Notes: generated from the sequence alone by a model not told the origin. Positions 15,215 to 51,917 are shown, numbered from the stretch's first letter. The stretch is 64,000 bases of DNA from an uncultured Actinomycetota bacterium (GCA_963715855.1 OY970279.1:1856363-1920362); one strand, 5' to 3'. Made by a program: numbers and translations.

Positions 15215-15237
15215 CATTCGGGGTAAATCTCAAGGAG

Positions 15238-15582
15238 TGGAGGTGCGGGCGTCGAAGCCCGGTCCGATGATTCCTTGGTGAACATTCTCCGAGCGCAGCT
15301 GTCAGAAGATTGTCGGGGTGGCCACTGCTGTCAGCTCCTTTGGACACCCGTAGTTAACTAAGTTTTCCCGCCGAGACCGTTAACGGATCAGGTCGGTAAG
15401 TCCCGCATTATGACGCCCTAGATCTGAACCGCAGGACCGGGTCCAGGAGGACGTTGCTACCTAAGCAGCAAGCGCAAGCGAAGGCTTGGCGTTTATTTAG
15501 TTTTCCGGCTCTTTAACGTGGTTCCGGAGACCACGGCTCGCTTCTTTCACCTCAACAATCAACGTCGAAACCATTCACCCCC
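15238..15582 (-). ncRNA. ssrA: tmRNA; tag peptide (A)AKPSLALAA encoded at 15490-15461
   Basis: 5' GGGGGTGAATGGTTTCGAC; 3' GGACCGGGCTTCGACGCCCGCACCTCCA; acceptor stem with G3-U pair; resume signal AATAAAC-GCC; smpB nearby. Confidence 0.95.
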
Positions 15583-23495: not shown

Positions 23496-23574
23496 TGCGG
23501 GCGGCGGGATTCGAACCCACACTCCGAAGAACTGGTACCTAAAACCAGCGCGTCTACCATTCCGCCACGCCCGC
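23496..23574 (-). tRNA. tRNA-Leu(TAG)
   Basis: GCGGGCG acceptor stem, CTGGT-TTTAGGT-ACCAG anticodon arm, long variable arm, TTCGAAT T-loop; CCA not encoded. Confidence 0.96.
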
Positions 23575-30647: not shown

Positions 30648-30723
30648 GCGGACGTAGCTCAGTTGGTAGAGCGCGACCTTGCCAAGGTCGAGGTCGCCGG
30701 TTCGAGCCCGGTCGTCCGCTCCA
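30648..30723 (+). tRNA. tRNA-Gly(GCC)
   Basis: GCGGACG acceptor stem, CGACC-TTGCCAA-GGTCG anticodon arm, TTCGAGC T-loop, encoded CCA. Confidence 0.97.
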
Positions 30724-45719: not shown

Positions 45720-46591
45720 CGCCCGCCGGGACGGCGCCTAGCGCCGCCCCGTGCCTGGCCCTAGATATCGGCGCGTCCAAGGTCGCGGCGGGTCTCGTTG
45801 ATGGCGACGGGGTCATACTCGCGCGCGATCGCCTGGCGATCGGTGACGCGACCGATCTTCTGGAGCGCATCGGTGATCTGATCGACGCCGTCGCGGGCGA
45901 CGCCAAGCCCTCGGTGTTGGGCGTGGCGTGCGCCGGACCGATGAAGGATCACGGTGCATTGGTGTCGCCCCTCAACATTCCGTCGTGGCGCGACATGGCG
46001 TTGCGCGACGAACTGAGTCAGCGCCTGTCGGTCGAGGTTCACGTCGACGGCGACGCGCGAGCTCTGGCGCTCGCCGAGGGACGATTCGGTGCCGCTCGTG
46101 GTGACGCGTCGTATCTGTCGATGGTCGTTTCGAGCGGCGTGGGCGGCGGCGTCGTCGTCGACGGACGCCTCATTGACGGCGCGAGCGGCAATGCGGGACA
46201 CGTCGGTCACCTGACGGTGGTCCCGGATGGTCGCGACTGCGCGTGCGGGAGTCGCGGATGTCTTGAAGCCGAGGCCTCGGGGTTCGCGATACGCGCGATG
46301 ACGGGACGACCTGCCGAAGAGGCGGACGCGGAGACGCGCACGCGGACCGCTCGACTCGTAGGTCGCGCGGTGGGCACGCTGTCGGCGGTGCTGGACTTCA
46401 CCCGGTGTTACATCGGCGGATCGGTGGCCCTGGGCTTCGGCCGCGGATTCTTCGACCAGGCCAACGAGGCCGCCCACGAGGTCGCGCGAATCTCCTACGT
46501 GCGCGACTTGACGATTCGTCCCACGAGCCTCGGTCCCGACGGTGGCCTGTTAGGTGCGGCCATGGTGGGTTGGCGAGGGGCGGTGGCGTGA
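45716..46591 (+). CDS. ROK-family sugar kinase
   Basis: LDIGASK, DGDARALALAE, SGVGGG, GHVGH, CACGSRGCLE. Confidence 0.9.
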   Translation: MTPAGTAPSAAPCLALDIGASKVAAGLVDGDGVILARDRLAIGDATDLLERIGDLIDAVAGDAKPSVLGVACAGPMKDHGALVSPLNIPSWRDMALRDELSQRLSVEVHVDGDARALALAEGRFGAARGDASYLSMVVSSGVGGGVVVDGRLIDGASGNAGHVGHLTVVPDGRDCACGSRGCLEAEASGFAIRAMTGRPAEEADAETRTRTARLVGRAVGTLSAVLDFTRCYIGGSVALGFGRGFFDQANEAAHEVARISYVRDLTIRPTSLGPDGGLLGAAMVGWRGAVA

Positions 46592-46845: not shown

Positions 46846-47352
46846 ATGAGTCGCGTGCTCCTGCTCAACGCCACCTTCGAGCCATTGCAGCTGGTGAGCG
46901 AACGACGCGCCGTGGTGCTGATGTTGGCCGGCCGGGCCGAGCCCATCGCGACGCCGGAAGAACCCGCGGTGTGTCGCAGCGCCACCTTGGTCATCGAGAT
47001 ACCAGCAATCGTCCGGCTCCACGAAATGGTGAAGCTGCCCGCGCGGGTCCGCACGCCGCCGTTGACGCGCCGGTCCCTGCTACTGCGCGACAGCTATCGC
47101 TGCGCCTACTGCCTGGAGCACGCCGACACGATTGATCACGTGGTTCCGCGCAGCCGGGGCGGACTGCACGACTGGACCAACGTCGTGGCCGCGTGCAAGC
47201 ACCACAACATGCAAAAGGGCGACCGTTTGATCGAGGAGCTCGGCTGGCGCCTGCACTTCGAGCCGCGGGTGCCCGACGGGCCCTGGTGGCGGTGGCGTCA
47301 CGTCCCGGACCCCCACCCGCTGTGGGCGCCGTTCCTGCCGCGCGCCTCGTGA
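46846..47352 (+). CDS. HNH endonuclease (actinobacterial McrA-like type)
   Basis: VLLLNATFEPL, RDSYRCAYC, TIDHVVPRSRGG, WTNVVAACKHHN. Confidence 0.9.
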   Translation: MSRVLLLNATFEPLQLVSERRAVVLMLAGRAEPIATPEEPAVCRSATLVIEIPAIVRLHEMVKLPARVRTPPLTRRSLLLRDSYRCAYCLEHADTIDHVVPRSRGGLHDWTNVVAACKHHNMQKGDRLIEELGWRLHFEPRVPDGPWWRWRHVPDPHPLWAPFLPRAS

Positions 47353-48008
47353 CGGGCGACGTCGCCGATCTCTTCGACTATCGCCGCCTTCGCGAGAGCG
47401 TGATGGCGACAATGACCGTGGTCGACGTGGCGGAACCCATCGTGGTCCTGGGTAGTGCTCAATCTCTGGAGACCCTGCGCCACGACTCGAGTGTCGGGCC
47501 CGTTCGTCGACGCCGCGGCGGGGGAGGGGTGGTGCTGGCCCAACCGGACGACCTGTGGGTGGACTGGTGGATTCCTGCGCGAGACCCCCGCTGGAGCGAC
47601 GACGTGCGCGCCAGCGCCGTGGCGGCGGGCCGCTGGTGGCGCGACGCGCTGAAAGGTCTCGTCACGGGCGACGTTGAGGTGCACGAGGGTCCAATGAGTG
47701 GCGCGGCCCAGCACCGCGTGGTCTGTTTCGCGGGCCGCGGACCGGGCGAGGTCTTCGTGGACGGGCGCAAAGCAGTTGGACTCACTCAGTGGCGGGTTCG
47801 CGAGGGTGTCTTGCTCTCGAGCGTGTTGCCGGCCCGGTCCTCTGACGCGTTGTTGGGAATGCTCATGAACGTCCCGGAGGGACTGGGCGACGCGCTCGAC
47901 CATCACACTCGGTCGTCCCTCGGCCTCGATGACGCGACGTCGGTCGTCGATCTGCTGGCGCGAGCTTCCGGTTCGCCCGCTGTGTCGCGCCAGCACCTTC
48001 TTTCCTAG
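47349..48008 (+). CDS. Lipoate-protein ligase/BPL-LplA family protein
   Basis: VVLGSAQ, RRRGGGGVV, VCFAGRGPGEV, GRKAVG. Confidence 0.72.
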   Translation: MTGDVADLFDYRRLRESVMATMTVVDVAEPIVVLGSAQSLETLRHDSSVGPVRRRRGGGGVVLAQPDDLWVDWWIPARDPRWSDDVRASAVAAGRWWRDALKGLVTGDVEVHEGPMSGAAQHRVVCFAGRGPGEVFVDGRKAVGLTQWRVREGVLLSSVLPARSSDALLGMLMNVPEGLGDALDHHTRSSLGLDDATSVVDLLARASGSPAVSRQHLLS

Positions 48009-48094
48009 CCCCGACACCCGCTCGGACGCGCCGTTTCATCGCCGCACAACACCACCCCATAAATGAGGTCAGCGGGGTCGAAAATTGGCCCTGG

Positions 48095-48139
48095 GTGGGA
48101 GGTAGTGGTGTATGGTGGTGCGAAGTGGGGGAGAGTGGT
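48095..48139 (+). promoter_or_regulatory. MraZ-binding direct-repeat array (five GTGG boxes, 10-bp period)
   Basis: GTGG at 48095, 48105, 48115, 48125 and 48135 upstream of mraZ. Confidence 0.85.
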
Positions 48140-48170
48140 GACCTCGCGGATGGGTGCGGAGGGTTAGGCG

Positions 48171-48593
48171 ATGCTCGGGTTCGTCGGTCAGTTCCAACAC
48201 ACGTTGGACGCCAAGGGTCGACTCATCCTGCCCGCACGCTTCCGGCCCGAGTTCGAGCGCGGGGGTCACCTGAGCCCGAACACCGAGGGCTGTGTGGCGC
48301 TGTGGACGCCCGGCGAGTTCGCCCGGCAGACTGAAGAGCGTCTGAGCCAAAGCCGTAGCGGCGGTCAGCTCGATCGCCAGCAGGCCCGGTACTGGGCGGC
48401 CAACTCCTCAGACGTGGAGTTCGACAAGCAGGGGCGGTTCGCCCTGCCCGCGGCGATCCGCGAGTACGGCCGCTTGAGTGGAGACGTGCTCGTGGTGGGC
48501 GCGCTGGACCACCTGGAGCTGTGGGACCCGGGCGTGTACGCCCAGCAGGTCAACCCCGCCGAAGAGATCTTCAAAAAGGGCAGCACCGAGTGA
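48171..48593 (+). CDS. mraZ: Division/cell-wall cluster transcriptional repressor MraZ
   Basis: LDAKGRLILPA, FDKQGRF, LELW. Confidence 0.95.
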   Translation: MLGFVGQFQHTLDAKGRLILPARFRPEFERGGHLSPNTEGCVALWTPGEFARQTEERLSQSRSGGQLDRQQARYWAANSSDVEFDKQGRFALPAAIREYGRLSGDVLVVGALDHLELWDPGVYAQQVNPAEEIFKKGSTE

Positions 48594-48620
48594 AAGGAAC
48601 GCTTCAGCAGTATCGGCCGC

Positions 48621-48713
48621 GGACCATGCGCAGCCTGCCAATCGTCAAGACGGGACGGGAAACCTCCTCCGCCCTCTCGCCCGTCTTGACGATTGGGGGG
48701 CTGCAGATGGCCC
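48621..48713 (+). repeat. Long inverted repeat (17-bp perfect core, 34 bp overall) covering the rsmH start
   Basis: CCAATCGTCAAGACGGG (48638-48654) pairs with CCCGTCTTGACGATTGG (48680-48696); outer pairing extends over ATG 48707. Confidence 0.9.
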
Positions 48714-49648
48714 AGGACACCTACCACGTACCGGTCTTCGAGACGGAGATCGTCGACCTGCTGGCCGGCCAACCGGTCGGCGTGCTCGTCGACGCCACGG
48801 TGGGCGGCGGCGGTCACGCGGACCTCATCTTGCGGGCTGCGCCGCAACTGCGGGTCCTCGGGATCGACCGCGACCCCGACGCGCGCGCCGCAGCGACGGC
48901 GCGGCTGGCGCCGCACGGCGACCGGTTCCGCGTCGTCGACGCCGCGTTCGCCGACTTGGCGAGCGTGCTCGAGCGGTTCGCTGACTTCGTGGGCGACTCG
49001 CCCCTGGTCGGGGTGCTCATGGACTTGGGTGTCTCGTCGCACCAGCTCGACGACGCGACGCGGGGATTCTCCTTTCGCGCCGACGCGCCCCTCGACATGC
49101 GCATGGACCCGACGCGCGGTGAGACGGCCGCCCAGTACCTGGCGCGCGTCGACCAGCACGAGTTCGTGCGGGTTCTACGCCTCAACGGTGAGCAACGCTT
49201 CGCCGGGGCGATTGCGCGCGCGGTTCTCGACGCGCAGCCTCAGACGACCGGTGAGCTGGCCGCCGCGGTCGAGCGCGCGGTGCCCGCCGCCGCACGGCGC
49301 CGAGGCCACGTGGCCACGCGCGTCTTCCAGGCCCTGCGCGTCGAGGTGAACGCCGAGGACGAACAGTTGGCCCGCGGACTCGAGGCCGCCTTGGACGCGT
49401 TGTCTGTCGGCGGGTTATTGGTTGTTGTCAGCTACCACTCGGGGGAGGACCGCGCGGTCAAGGCGTTCTTTCACGAAGCGGCCACCGGAGGCTGTCGGTG
49501 CCCGGTGGAACTGGGTTGCGTCTGCGGAGCGGTGCCGCGCGCCAGCGTGGCGCGCGCGAGTGCGACCCTGGCGACCGCCCTGGAGATCGCGCGTAACCCG
49601 AGGTCTCGATCGGCCCGACTGCGCGTGGCGAAGAAGGTTTCGCCGTGA
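48707..49648 (+). CDS. rsmH: 16S rRNA m4C1402 methyltransferase
   Basis: YHVPV, DATVGGGGH, MDLGVSS, PLDMRMD, VSYHSGEDR, NPRSRSA. Confidence 0.95.
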   Translation: MAQDTYHVPVFETEIVDLLAGQPVGVLVDATVGGGGHADLILRAAPQLRVLGIDRDPDARAAATARLAPHGDRFRVVDAAFADLASVLERFADFVGDSPLVGVLMDLGVSSHQLDDATRGFSFRADAPLDMRMDPTRGETAAQYLARVDQHEFVRVLRLNGEQRFAGAIARAVLDAQPQTTGELAAAVERAVPAAARRRGHVATRVFQALRVEVNAEDEQLARGLEAALDALSVGGLLVVVSYHSGEDRAVKAFFHEAATGGCRCPVELGCVCGAVPRASVARASATLATALEIARNPRSRSARLRVAKKVSP

Positions 49649-50079
49649 GCGTGGTCACGCTCCCGCGGCGCATCGAGGCGCAACCGCGGCGAGTCGCCGC
49701 GCCCAAGCACGCGACGCGCGTCGCGAGTCGAGAGGCCGCGCACACTCGAGTGGCACGCGTCTCGATGACGCGTCGATCGATCGTGATCGTCGTGGTGGCC
49801 CTCGCGCTGTCTCTGAGTGGCAGCATGCTCGCGGCCAACCGACAGGTACAGATCCACCAACTCCAGAGCCAGCTCCTGCAGCTGCAGTCCAACTACGCCC
49901 AACAGGTGGGCTCCCTCACCAATCTGGCCGCTCCGGGCCAGATCGCCGAACAGGCGGGGGTCCTGCACCTGGTCGACCCCGTCTCGGTGACGCAAGTCCC
50001 GTCCACGTCACTTGATGCGCCCTTGCCGCTTCCGAAGTTCCTAGGTTCCGCGCCGGTCACATCAAGGACGCGGCGGTGA
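49645..50079 (+). CDS. ftsL: Cell division protein FtsL-like
   Basis: Position between rsmH and ftsI; one TM segment followed by a coiled coil. Confidence 0.65.
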   Translation: MSVVTLPRRIEAQPRRVAAPKHATRVASREAAHTRVARVSMTRRSIVIVVVALALSLSGSMLAANRQVQIHQLQSQLLQLQSNYAQQVGSLTNLAAPGQIAEQAGVLHLVDPVSVTQVPSTSLDAPLPLPKFLGSAPVTSRTRR

Positions 50080-51917
50080 GTGCACATTTCACCCCGACCC
50101 ACCATCGCGTCCGCCCGCTTCCAGTGGCCGGGCGCCGCACCGGCGCGTCGCCGTCGCGGCGCCTCAAGCTCGTGCGGGCCGGCTTCGTCCTGGTCTTCGC
50201 GGCGCTGGCCGTTCGCCTCTTCTTTCTCCAAGTGGTGGATCACCCCTACTTCAGCGCACTGTCGGTTGGTCAGGTCCGCGTTGACCTGACCACCACCGCA
50301 CTGCGCGCGGGGATCTACGACCGCAACGCGCAGATCCTCGCGGTGTCACGTCCCACCTCCCTGGTGATCGCCGACGACATGCAGATCTCGCACCCCGCAA
50401 CGGAGGCGGCGGCCATGGCGCCGCTGGTACACGTGCCGGTGGCCAAGCTCACCCGGATGCTCTCGAAGAAACACGACGGCTACGTCGTGATCACCAATGA
50501 CCTCAACCTGGCGTCGGGTCACAAGGTGTCGTCACTGGTCTTTCCGGGCATCGTCGTGCAGAGCTCGTCGGTGCGGACCTACCCCAGCGGGCCGATCGCA
50601 ACCTCGGTGCTCGGTGGAACCAACGCCCAGGGCGCGGGCTCGGCCGGCCTGGAGTACAAGTACCAGTCACTGCTCGCGGGTCGCACCGGTGTCACGCGCG
50701 CCTTCGTCTCCAGCTCGGGCGTCAATCTGCCGAGCGCGGCATCGACCGTCGTCACCAAGGCGAAGCCGGGCGTGGGACTTGAACTGACCCTGGACACGTC
50801 GTTGCAGTTCGTCGCCGAGCGCGCCCTGGCTCGTGAACTCGCCTCGACCGGCGCGGTCGACGGATCGGCCGTGGTCATGGATGTGAAAACCGGTCAGATC
50901 TTGGCCGACGCCTCGCTGGTGAACACGCACACCCAGGCCGGCGTCCTCGGGCCGGTGCCGGCGTGGGGTCACTCGGTGGGAGTGCCCGGGATCCAACAGA
51001 CCATCAACAACCTTCCCTTCACCCAGGCCTACGAGCCGGGGTCGGTGTTCAAGGTCGTGACTTTTTCAGCGGCGCTGCAGCAGGGCGTGATCACGCCGAA
51101 CAGCGTCTTCGCCGTGCCCAACGCCGTCAACGTCGGCGGGCGCTACTTCCACGACGCCGAGGCCCACGGTCTCGAGCACCTGACGGCCACCCAGATCCTG
51201 GCGCTGTCGTCGAACATCGGCACCTACGAGATCGGAAGCAAGGTGGGCGAGGCCGGGCTGTTGGCCCAGGTCGAACGGCTGGGATTCGGTCAGCAGACCC
51301 CGGTCGACTTTCCTGGCGAGACCTCCGGACTGCTCGTGAGCGCCGCCAACTGGCACACCAGCGACCAGGTCGCGCTGCCCATCGGCCAGGTGGACGCGGT
51401 GCCGCCGATCCAGATCCTCGACGCGTACAACACCATCGCCAACGGGGGCGTGTACGTCGCGCCCAAGTTGGTGCGCGGGTACGTGCACGCCAACGGAACA
51501 GTGAGCGCGACGCCACCCAGCGTGCACTACCGAGCATTGTCGCCCGCGGTGGACGCGACGATGGTGTCGATGCTCGAGCAGGTCGTCCTCGCCGGCACCG
51601 GCACCAGCGCCATCATCCCGGGCTACTCGGTGGCCGGCAAGACCGGGACGGCCTCCATGTTCATCCCGGGAAAGGCGCAGTTGTTGAGCGGCGCGTACAA
51701 CGCCACCTTCGTCGGATTCGCCCCCGCCAACGCTCCAGTACTGTCGATGATTGTTGTCATTGAGAGGCCCCAGACCATGATCTTCGGCGGCGAGGTCGCC
51801 GCGCCGGTCTTCCAGCAGGTCATGTCGTACGCCCTGCACCACTACGGGATCCCGTCCAACGGCACCGTCGTCAAGCCCCTGACCGGCAAGGCGTCGATCA
51901 GCTCGGACGTGACGTGA
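50076..51917 (+). CDS. ftsI: Class B penicillin-binding protein FtsI
   Basis: YEPGSVFK, SSN, AGKTGT, N-terminal TM segment. Confidence 0.93.
   Translation: MSAHFTPTHHRVRPLPVAGRRTGASPSRRLKLVRAGFVLVFAALAVRLFFLQVVDHPYFSALSVGQVRVDLTTTALRAGIYDRNAQILAVSRPTSLVIADDMQISHPATEAAAMAPLVHVPVAKLTRMLSKKHDGYVVITNDLNLASGHKVSSLVFPGIVVQSSSVRTYPSGPIATSVLGGTNAQGAGSAGLEYKYQSLLAGRTGVTRAFVSSSGVNLPSAASTVVTKAKPGVGLELTLDTSLQFVAERALARELASTGAVDGSAVVMDVKTGQILADASLVNTHTQAGVLGPVPAWGHSVGVPGIQQTINNLPFTQAYEPGSVFKVVTFSAALQQGVITPNSVFAVPNAVNVGGRYFHDAEAHGLEHLTATQILALSSNIGTYEIGSKVGEAGLLAQVERLGFGQQTPVDFPGETSGLLVSAANWHTSDQVALPIGQVDAVPPIQILDAYNTIANGGVYVAPKLVRGYVHANGTVSATPPSVHYRALSPAVDATMVSMLEQVVLAGTGTSAIIPGYSVAGKTGTASMFIPGKAQLLSGAYNATFVGFAPANAPVLSMIVVIERPQTMIFGGEVAAPVFQQVMSYALHHYGIPSNGTVVKPLTGKASISSDVT

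Follow-up and report, generated by a model that had tools for sequence, protein, structure and literature searches.

How is RsmH produced when the start codon of its gene is locked inside a helix? The question is raised by the 113-nucleotide (nt) spacer between mraZ and rsmH in the window, by which is meant the whole stretch of 64,000 nt analysed here from an uncultured Actinomycetota bacterium (GCA_963715855.1 OY970279.1:1856363-1920362). The spacer stands at the head of the dcw (division) cluster, among the most conserved gene arrays of bacteria, where little is understood of the control that follows the MraZ promoter, and it encodes a long hairpin that covers the beginning of rsmH. This hairpin is almost certainly a structured RNA homologous to a motif found across the class Acidimicrobiia, as judged from sequence and covariation, and would act in cis as part of the mraZ-rsmH messenger. 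A three-helix RNA would have lost its helix P3 and stacked P2 on P1, giving one stem of about 37 base pairs (bp) capped by a CUCCGCC loop. The route by which ribosomes would pass this stem, restart at the mraZ stop followed by read-through in frame, has about an even chance of being the main one in the clade of the window. The elements of the hairpin are the following:

48617-48717, + strand: whole hairpin element, 37 predicted pairs, very probably a reduced form of the Acidimicrobiia mraZ-rsmH structured RNA
48661-48674, + strand: apical loop of 14 nt, AACCUCCUCCGCCC, carrying the family hallmark CUCCGCC(C)
48695-48709, + strand: Shine-Dalgarno (SD)-like GGGGGG (48695-48700) and rsmH start AUG (48707-48709, AUG2), both within the 3' strand of the stem
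48626-48628, + strand: upstream in-frame ATG (ATG1), in the 5' strand of the basal helix, where CAU 48625-27 pairs with AUG 48707-09

The stem is built on a perfect 17-bp core, CCAATCGTCAAGACGGG at 48638-48654 with its exact reverse complement at 48680-48696, as read from the sequence. The arms delimited by a repeat finder (48621-48654 and 48680-48713) measure 34 nt, are 85% complementary and lie 25 nt apart, in agreement with the original prediction of a 17-bp stem extending to 34 bp with four mismatches and one G-T pair. The 25-nt loop described there is correct as the distance between the arms; in the fold, five additional pairs (48656-60 with 48675-79), which covary in relatives, leave a true loop of 14 nt, and a few more extend the stem down to 48617/48717. 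Twelve of the 14 loop positions have a predicted unpaired probability of ~1 and the other two of 0.65 and 0.60. The RNA from 48585 to 48730 folds at -73.1 kcal/mol (z = -5.75; 0/200 shuffles equally stable), and the hairpin alone (48617-48717) has a predicted minimum free energy of -66.8 kcal/mol. The SD-like GGGGGG and the AUG 48707-09 both show a predicted unpaired probability of ~0, as expected from the earlier proposal that the stem sequesters the ribosome-binding region and ATG 48707, and forcing a 30S-sized site (48690-48721) into single-stranded form would cost +36.9 kcal/mol in the same kind of prediction. The pairing of CAU 48625-27 with the start codon is also present in the clade alignment (columns 10-12 with 92-94). 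ATG 48626 has no SD ahead of it and is not conserved in the wider family, where the position reads CAUC, CAUG or CAUU. Occlusion of the SD and AUG by the stem is, from these fold models, quite likely to matter.

The hairpin is kept in relatives of the window. A closely related Acidimicrobiales metagenome-assembled genome (MAG; L042) is 95.3% identical in mraZ and 90.0% identical in rsmH, with differences mostly at third codon positions, and is identical at 122/122 nt between the mraZ stop and a point shortly after AUG 48707. Two more distant relatives (L050 and L051, RsmH identity 73% and 65%) keep the hairpin with different stem sequences. The clade was sampled by a metagenome scan anchored on the basal helix only, which returned at least 69 true members, with 41 distinct sequences over 102 nt; the basal pairs are fixed by the search pattern and are thus uninformative for covariation. 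In all 69 members listed rsmH lies directly 3' of the hairpin. Among the 41 distinct sequences listed 90% of the cells are paired, compared with 41% or less in slid controls, 15 of the 37 pairs have changed on both sides, and none of 500 shuffles reaches the paired fraction or the covariation score. Absence from close relatives had been named beforehand as a sign against function; the hairpin is present in them with compensatory changes. The loop was left unconstrained by the scan and U.CUCCGC is invariant in the 41 distinct members listed, some members reading CCGCAU or CCGCCA in the loop region. The anti-SD-like tract CCUCCUCC to which the original prediction had drawn attention is not the conserved part of the loop, which is CUCCGCC instead, and one subclade reads AUAUUCUCCGCC. 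Five loci from contigs Ga0182031_* (L274, L281, L305, L323 and L326), with cores of 81 or 83 nt instead of 82, were left out of the counts; these lengths look like assembly or sequencing errors and not real frame changes, and all except L274 carry single-base deletions in the flanks or in rsmH as well.

The public reads comprise soil-metagenome contigs only, with one RNA-labelled run (X17), and give neither ends nor direction. Of the hairpin, only the conserved 5' half (48605-48654) is represented in this run, by short contigs of relatives with a word depth of 26-31 against 2-13 for adjacent rsmH pieces; those continuing past 48654 read TAGAGAAT, the variant of the L252/L258 type. The depth pattern could reflect a stable RNA fragment or mere assembly breaks at the inverted repeat.

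A long intergenic inverted repeat could also be a palindromic mobile repeat, of the miniature inverted-repeat transposable element (MITE) or repetitive extragenic palindromic (REP) type, or else a terminator or attenuator; a MITE-like insertion and an attenuator were both among the alternatives first proposed. The 17-mer occurs in the window as one paired copy, with a third match at 46502-46518 (- strand, 3 mismatches) that has no partner arm. As a pair it was found among 185,579 species-representative genomes only in L042, the other 48 matches in the collection being single-arm chance matches in unrelated taxa. A mobile palindrome of MITE or REP type is ruled out by this single copy and by the fixed synteny and orientation across at least ~200 Acidimicrobiia loci. 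No U-tract follows the stem, where the sequence is GGCCCAGGACACC, and a terminator scan found nothing at the hairpin, which rules out an intrinsic terminator or attenuator. Being single-copy and without a U-tract, the element is neither a mobile repeat nor a terminator, and this whole group of readings is extremely improbable. The original prediction had taken a single copy with covariation in relatives as support for regulation, and both were found.

The larger form of the RNA was found in distant Acidimicrobiia identified through RsmH (L052, L053, L054 and L098), which have it in the same position. It was extended to the at least ~200 Acidimicrobiia loci by two genome scans that used different anchors (7 false matches removed from the first scan), with mraZ 5' and rsmH 3' on the same strand wherever the locus is long enough. 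The consensus comprises a 29-bp P1, a P2 hairpin with loop GCCCCUACUCCGCCCG and a P3 hairpin, CGGGGAGAMAUCCCG. In an alignment of 89 sequences 91.4% of the cells are paired (slid controls 47% or less), compensatory changes occur in 38/46 pairs, and 27 of the 29 pairs of P1 have changed on both sides. U-G pairs are common and C-A pairs rare; since the former far outnumber the latter, the RNA corresponds to the + (messenger) strand. The P2 loop reads exactly ACTCCGCCCGCTT in 76 of the 102 distinct sequences listed, the others differing at one or two positions, and its core CUCCGCCCGC is kept in ~90% of these 102 three-helix sequences, which were collected with the loop unconstrained. A site for MraZ at the DNA level in the loop (complement GAGTAGGGG compared with GTGGKG boxes) was dropped, because the asymmetry between U-G and C-A shows selection at the RNA level and the simple, single-hairpin form does not have the resemblance. 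A purine-rich SD-like tract after the mraZ stop seemed conserved initially and turned out not to be general.

A covariance model of the three-helix motif (R1), whose E-values are rough owing to a short calibration, matches the window at 48617-48723 (+ strand) with 36.9 bits and E ~8e-6 in 559 kb, the - strand reaching 30.3 bits. It aligns the hairpin end to end with P3 deleted; in the clade member L259 29 P3 model positions are deleted, and the window match is shorter by about the same amount. Clade relatives score 15-41 bits on the rsmH-sense strand, with the reverse strand slightly higher in L050, and 70-odd loci of other phyla gave nothing significant. The basal helix of the window aligns to P1, and the P1 strands CAUGCGCAGCC / GGCUGCAGAUG are common to the window and to members of the L053 type. 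The window loop ...CCUCCUCCGCCC (48661-74) carries the P2-loop hallmark CUCCGCC, and the P3 hairpin CGGGGAGAMAUCCCG is not in the window. With the same P1, the same loop core and no P3, the element is best regarded as a reduced descendant and not as a full member. This reduced form separates the parts of the RNA, as the loop outlives a whole helix; for this reason the loop is taken to be the functional core of the element, and the core function would sit in P1 and the CUCCGCC loop, which are always kept. The invariant loop would go back to the ancestral motif, and most likely it serves to dock a partner acting in trans.

Loss of P3 argues against a small-molecule aptamer and for a partner that binds the loop. 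A small-molecule riboswitch was rejected, as the clade lacks the conserved helix P3 while the element is under strong constraint, and the window and L052 match none of the riboswitch families in Rfam; with permissive thresholds these two sequences gave only chance matches to hairpins of the microRNA-precursor type. Rfam 15 has no family for the Acidimicrobiia mraZ-rsmH RNA, and no description of this RNA turned up in a literature search.

In one three-helix subclade (L134, L138, L151, L156, L172, L176, L180, L187, L188, L190 and L192) a TTGACA box lies ~10-20 nt 5' of P1, which hints that the motif may begin an rsmH-specific transcript from its own promoter there. Five MAGs with the Acidimicrobiia-type motif between mraZ and rsmH (L155, L411, L414, L370 and L415) are titled 'Bifidobacterium breve', 'uncultured Bifidobacterium sp.' or 'Ferrithrix thermotolerans DSM 19514 isolate ...'; the titles naming Bifidobacterium appear to be errors.

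The position of the hairpin is shared with the mraW motif of Actinomycetales (RF01746), a three-stem hairpin with terminal loop CUUCCCC that always precedes mraW and whose function is unknown (Weinberg et al. 2010, PMC2864571). It is presumed to be cis-regulatory and is described as an extended hairpin interrupted by internal loops, with strong conservation of its C/U-rich terminal loop (PMC2864571). Both are structured RNAs of Actinomycetota read on the sense strand of the mraZ-mraW/rsmH gap at the head of the dcw cluster, the window hairpin (48617-48717) lying between mraZ and rsmH on their strand, and they resemble each other in overall shape and in having a C-rich loop. They differ in the loop itself (CUUCCCC there, CUCCGCC(C) here), in the boxes GGCCUC...GGGACC and CCUG...CAGG, which are absent here, in architecture (a single hairpin there, a three-helix junction in the Acidimicrobiia parent form) and in the host group. 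The RF01746 model recovered its own motif at the same place in nine Actinomycetes loci (50.7-63 bits); it gave no match at E <= 1 in the window (47800-49000), none at the gathering score (50 bits) in seven Acidimicrobiia loci (L042 and L050-L055) and none at E <= 10 in L052, and R1 in turn had no match on the RF01746 loci. By these sequence searches the Acidimicrobiia RNA is a positional analogue of RF01746, with no detectable homology in sequence or structure. The undescribed control point first proposed for the window therefore had a precedent, given that a structured RNA before mraW/rsmH was already described in Actinomycetes (RF01746, PMC2864571); what stands is that the Acidimicrobiia RNA is not in Rfam 15. 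A whole actinobacterial class thus keeps a strongly covarying mraZ-rsmH RNA from outside Rfam, a second, unrelated-looking solution at the spot occupied in Actinomycetes by a motif of unknown function since 2010.

One proposal for the partner of the loop is RsmH itself. The loop, (A/U)CUCCGCCCGCU, would imitate 16S rRNA 1397-1406 (ACACCGCCCGU), a segment that contains C1402, the base methylated by RsmH, and lies within the universal 1392-1406 primer site. By binding to its own messenger RsmH would stabilise the closed stem, giving feedback, and it would perhaps methylate the leader. Operators that mimic rRNA or tRNA include the leaders of ribosomal-protein genes and the thrS operator, and the methyltransferases ErmC and KsgA are autoregulated. 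The likeness to such operators lies in a conserved hairpin loop that covers or adjoins the start site of a gene whose product is an RNA-binding enzyme, with CCGCCCG shared with the rRNA target; the differences are that the sequence match here is statistically weak and that the substrate reported for RsmH is the 30S particle. The element always lies directly before or over rsmH, in neither form is any other single-stranded part as conserved as its loop, which was retained when P3 was lost, as if working as a unit, and CCGCCCG is identical to 16S 1399-1405 (with flanks, 10/12 positions agree with 16S 1397-1408). However, matches of 8 of 9 positions to the 16S segment are common by chance in the GC-rich leaders of other phyla, a scan of rsmH leaders from 80 loci of other phyla found no enrichment, and the match restricted to the loop gives only an estimated p of ~0.03-0.05. 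The members with CCGCAU or CCGCCA depart from the 16S site, the loop of RF01746 is unlike it, and RsmH is reported to act on assembled 30S subunits and not on naked RNA. No report of autoregulation by RsmH came up in a literature search. An operator of this kind is quite unlikely; if true, it would give a clear new example of substrate mimicry involving an rRNA methyltransferase.

The genes on both sides of the hairpin and the codon that would connect them are the following:

48171-48593, + strand: mraZ coding sequence from the list of open reading frames (ORFs), 140 amino acids (aa), stop TGA 48591-48593, Pfam MraZ PF02381 (E = 7.9e-21)
48590-48592, + strand: candidate restart GTG, overlapping the mraZ stop (GUGA 48590-93) and in frame with rsmH
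48707-49648, + strand: rsmH (mraW) coding sequence from the ORF list, 313 aa from AUG 48707, Pfam PF01795 MraW methylase (E = 8e-87)

With the basal helix holding the SD and AUG of rsmH (48695-48709), a free 30S subunit would be unable to start there. Ribosomes finishing mraZ would instead restart on GUG 48590, melt the stem and read through it in frame, producing most of the RsmH, with a length of 352 aa instead of 313 aa, and RsmH output would be tied to translation of mraZ. GTG 48590 and ATG 48626 are both in the rsmH frame with no intervening stop, as originally reported, and this arrangement extends to the 49/49 relatives listed: an in-frame GTG or ATG lies on the mraZ stop or at most 6 nt from it in each of these distinct clade loci, and in 45 of them it is exactly 36 nt before ATG1, as in the window. 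The codons vary and the relation is kept, through five arrangements of stop and start (UAGUG, UAAUG, GAGUGA, UAAGGAGUG and UAGGGAUGG). In L358 a 3-nt insertion 5' of the hairpin preserves the frame and places the restart ATG at -39. The frame from ATG 48626 is open in all 41 clade sequences listed, the other two frames having stops in 25 and 38. It is stop-free in 12/12 sequence clusters, with a shuffle expectation of ~0.6 each, although the resulting product of 0.002 overstates the case, given the relatedness of the clusters and the near absence of stops from some control frames as well. Variation of rsmH in relatives is dominated by third codon positions; the gene is under purifying selection and must therefore be expressed. 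Given an in-frame start in 49/49 loci and a frame that is always open, ribosomes coming from mraZ are a credible way through the stem; together with the barrier of 37 kcal/mol and the purifying selection on rsmH, this makes restart with in-frame read-through the simplest route to RsmH, and the mechanism with the best support in the clade.

The arrangement resembles stop/start coupling at AUGA, UAAUG and GUGA junctions, in that the mraZ stop overlaps an in-frame start and the downstream start is locked in a helix. In classical coupling the masked start itself is used once the upstream ribosome has opened the helix, whereas here the restart codon lies 117 nt 5' of the masked AUG in the same frame, so that read-through and an extended protein are proposed. 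The clade thus offers a testable mechanism, comprising a start lock of -67 kcal/mol, a restart codon on the mraZ stop and an open, unconstrained frame. If it operates, coupling would fix the MraZ:RsmH ratio.

An open frame of constant length in all the clade members listed could also mean that the spacer encodes a functional N-terminal extension of RsmH, the hairpin being a by-product. The entropy of the spacer is flat across codon positions (0.51/0.50/0.46 over 27 codons, compared with 0.44/0.35/0.98 over the first 31 codons of rsmH), and the middle of the putative peptide is replaced wholesale (VKTGRESSSACSPVLT / AERERAIFSARPPRSA / ASVRGGTSSALFPFEA) while the base pairing is kept. In the parent family the same nucleotide motif occurs in another frame in L054 and behind an in-frame stop in L098. 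For these three reasons selection acts on the RNA, and an extension as the cause of conservation was rejected as very improbable. The spacer is open and in frame, as the original prediction held, and does not evolve as a protein; what counts in the read-through stretch is apparently that the frame stays open and the RNA is kept, and not the peptide.

A constitutive damper would account for the same stem in another way. Initiation at AUG 48707 would be kept very low, RsmH being needed in small amounts, ribosomes would enter by rare breathing of the basal helix or by the action of a helicase or S1, and the restart codon would be incidental. In most clade members an SD, GAAAGG, is kept 7 nt before AUG2, the match to the Pfam MraW profile (positions 3-308 of 309) begins at residue 6 when the protein is read from 48707, a start that typical RsmH N-termini also fit, and the upstream frame shows no coding constraint. 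Against this, passive 30S initiation tolerates far less structure than the predicted opening cost of +36.9 kcal/mol, the restart codon is in frame in all 49 loci listed with the frame never broken, and L358 has lost the purine SD before AUG2 altogether with the helix continuous. The damper is unlikely; the conserved SD and the fit of the profile do mean that AUG2 may also be used.

As a nearly perfect predicted duplex of ~37 bp, with a 29-bp P1 conserved across the class, the stem might also be a processing or stability element, that is an RNase III site separating mraZ from the rsmH-ftsL-ftsI message or setting their half-lives. RNase III reportedly acts on mraZ mRNA in Corynebacterium glutamicum. 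However, this would leave the invariant loop, the restart codon and the open frame unexplained, and a cut within the stem would either separate the SD from the rsmH start or keep that start in a duplex. Such a function, modelled from the fold, is rather unlikely even with a further point in its favour, that the observed 5' end of the C. glutamicum mraW untranslated region (UTR) falls inside the annotated mraW motif (PMC3890552).

Several observations weigh against coupling to mraZ as the main route. The one RNA-labelled public run gives short contigs without ends. Read-through variation is flat, the open frame could partly be kinship, and the other frames are often stop-free too in the variable part. 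The SD kept before AUG2 and the fit of the profile and of typical N-termini to 48707 have the same bearing. In the parent family the distance from the mraZ stop to P1 has a median of 68 nt (range -6 to 321; 64-321 in most), 67 of the 183 loci listed have a stop in the rsmH frame ahead of the gene, and the rsmH start lies within P1 in a minority of loci. A universal rsmH start at the ATG of the P1 3' strand was rejected on a sample of 105 loci, of which 23 have this ATG open and in frame, 41 have it out of frame and 37 lack it; occlusion of the ribosome-binding site is therefore limited to some lineages. Finally, coupling does not explain the invariance of the loop. From the distances, the closed frames and the rarity of starts in P1, coupling and burial of the ribosome-binding site are seen as lineage-specific uses of an older RNA. 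The original claim that rsmH is translated only through ribosomes from mraZ is thus partly supported, in the window clade, by the buried start and the restart codon in 49/49 loci, and does not hold as an ancestral or general rule.

The genes downstream of rsmH and the region ahead of mraZ contain the following features:

49645-50079, + strand: ORF in the FtsL position, 144 aa, from ORF coordinates
50076-51917, + strand: gene for a class B penicillin-binding protein (PBP/FtsI), Pfam Transpeptidase and PBP_dimer
48095-48140, + strand: putative MraZ-binding repeats in the operon promoter region, five GTGG[G/T][A/G] hexamers with 4-nt spacers and a 10-nt period

A Pfam search gave no match for the ORF in the FtsL position. 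This ORF begins with a GTG that shares 4 nt with the stop of rsmH (GTGA, 49645-49648), and its own stop overlaps the GTG of PBP/FtsI in the same way (GTGA, 50076-50079), making three consecutive junctions when the GUGA at the mraZ stop is counted. Translational coupling may thus run in a chain through the genes that follow the hairpin, and the overlaps would pass the same control to the ORF in the FtsL position and to FtsI. If RsmH were autoregulated, its coupling to these two genes would link ribosome maturation to cell division.

The five hexamers at 48095-48140 are, in order, GTGGGA, GTGGTG, GTGGTG, GTGGGG and GTGGTG, ending 30 nt 5' of the mraZ ATG. The published MraZ-binding repeats are GTGG[A/T]G with a 4-nt spacer (bioRxiv 10.1101/2022.02.09.479790); the spacing is the same, but there are five repeats here and three in the published pattern. 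A similar GTGG periodicity occurs in L050 and L051, and the hexamers are likely to be MraZ-binding repeats. Overexpression of mraZ in E. coli leads to lethal filamentation, which is rescued when mraW is co-expressed (as cited in bioRxiv 10.1101/2022.02.09.479790).

About 0.8 kb 5' of the mraZ promoter region lies an ORF of 168 aa with an HNH endonuclease domain (Pfam HNH_5 / HNH; 46846-47352, + strand). The Rfam scan of the whole window also identified a tmRNA gene at 15235-15582 (- strand, 124 bits) and two tRNA genes, at 23496-23574 (- strand) and 30648-30720 (+ strand).

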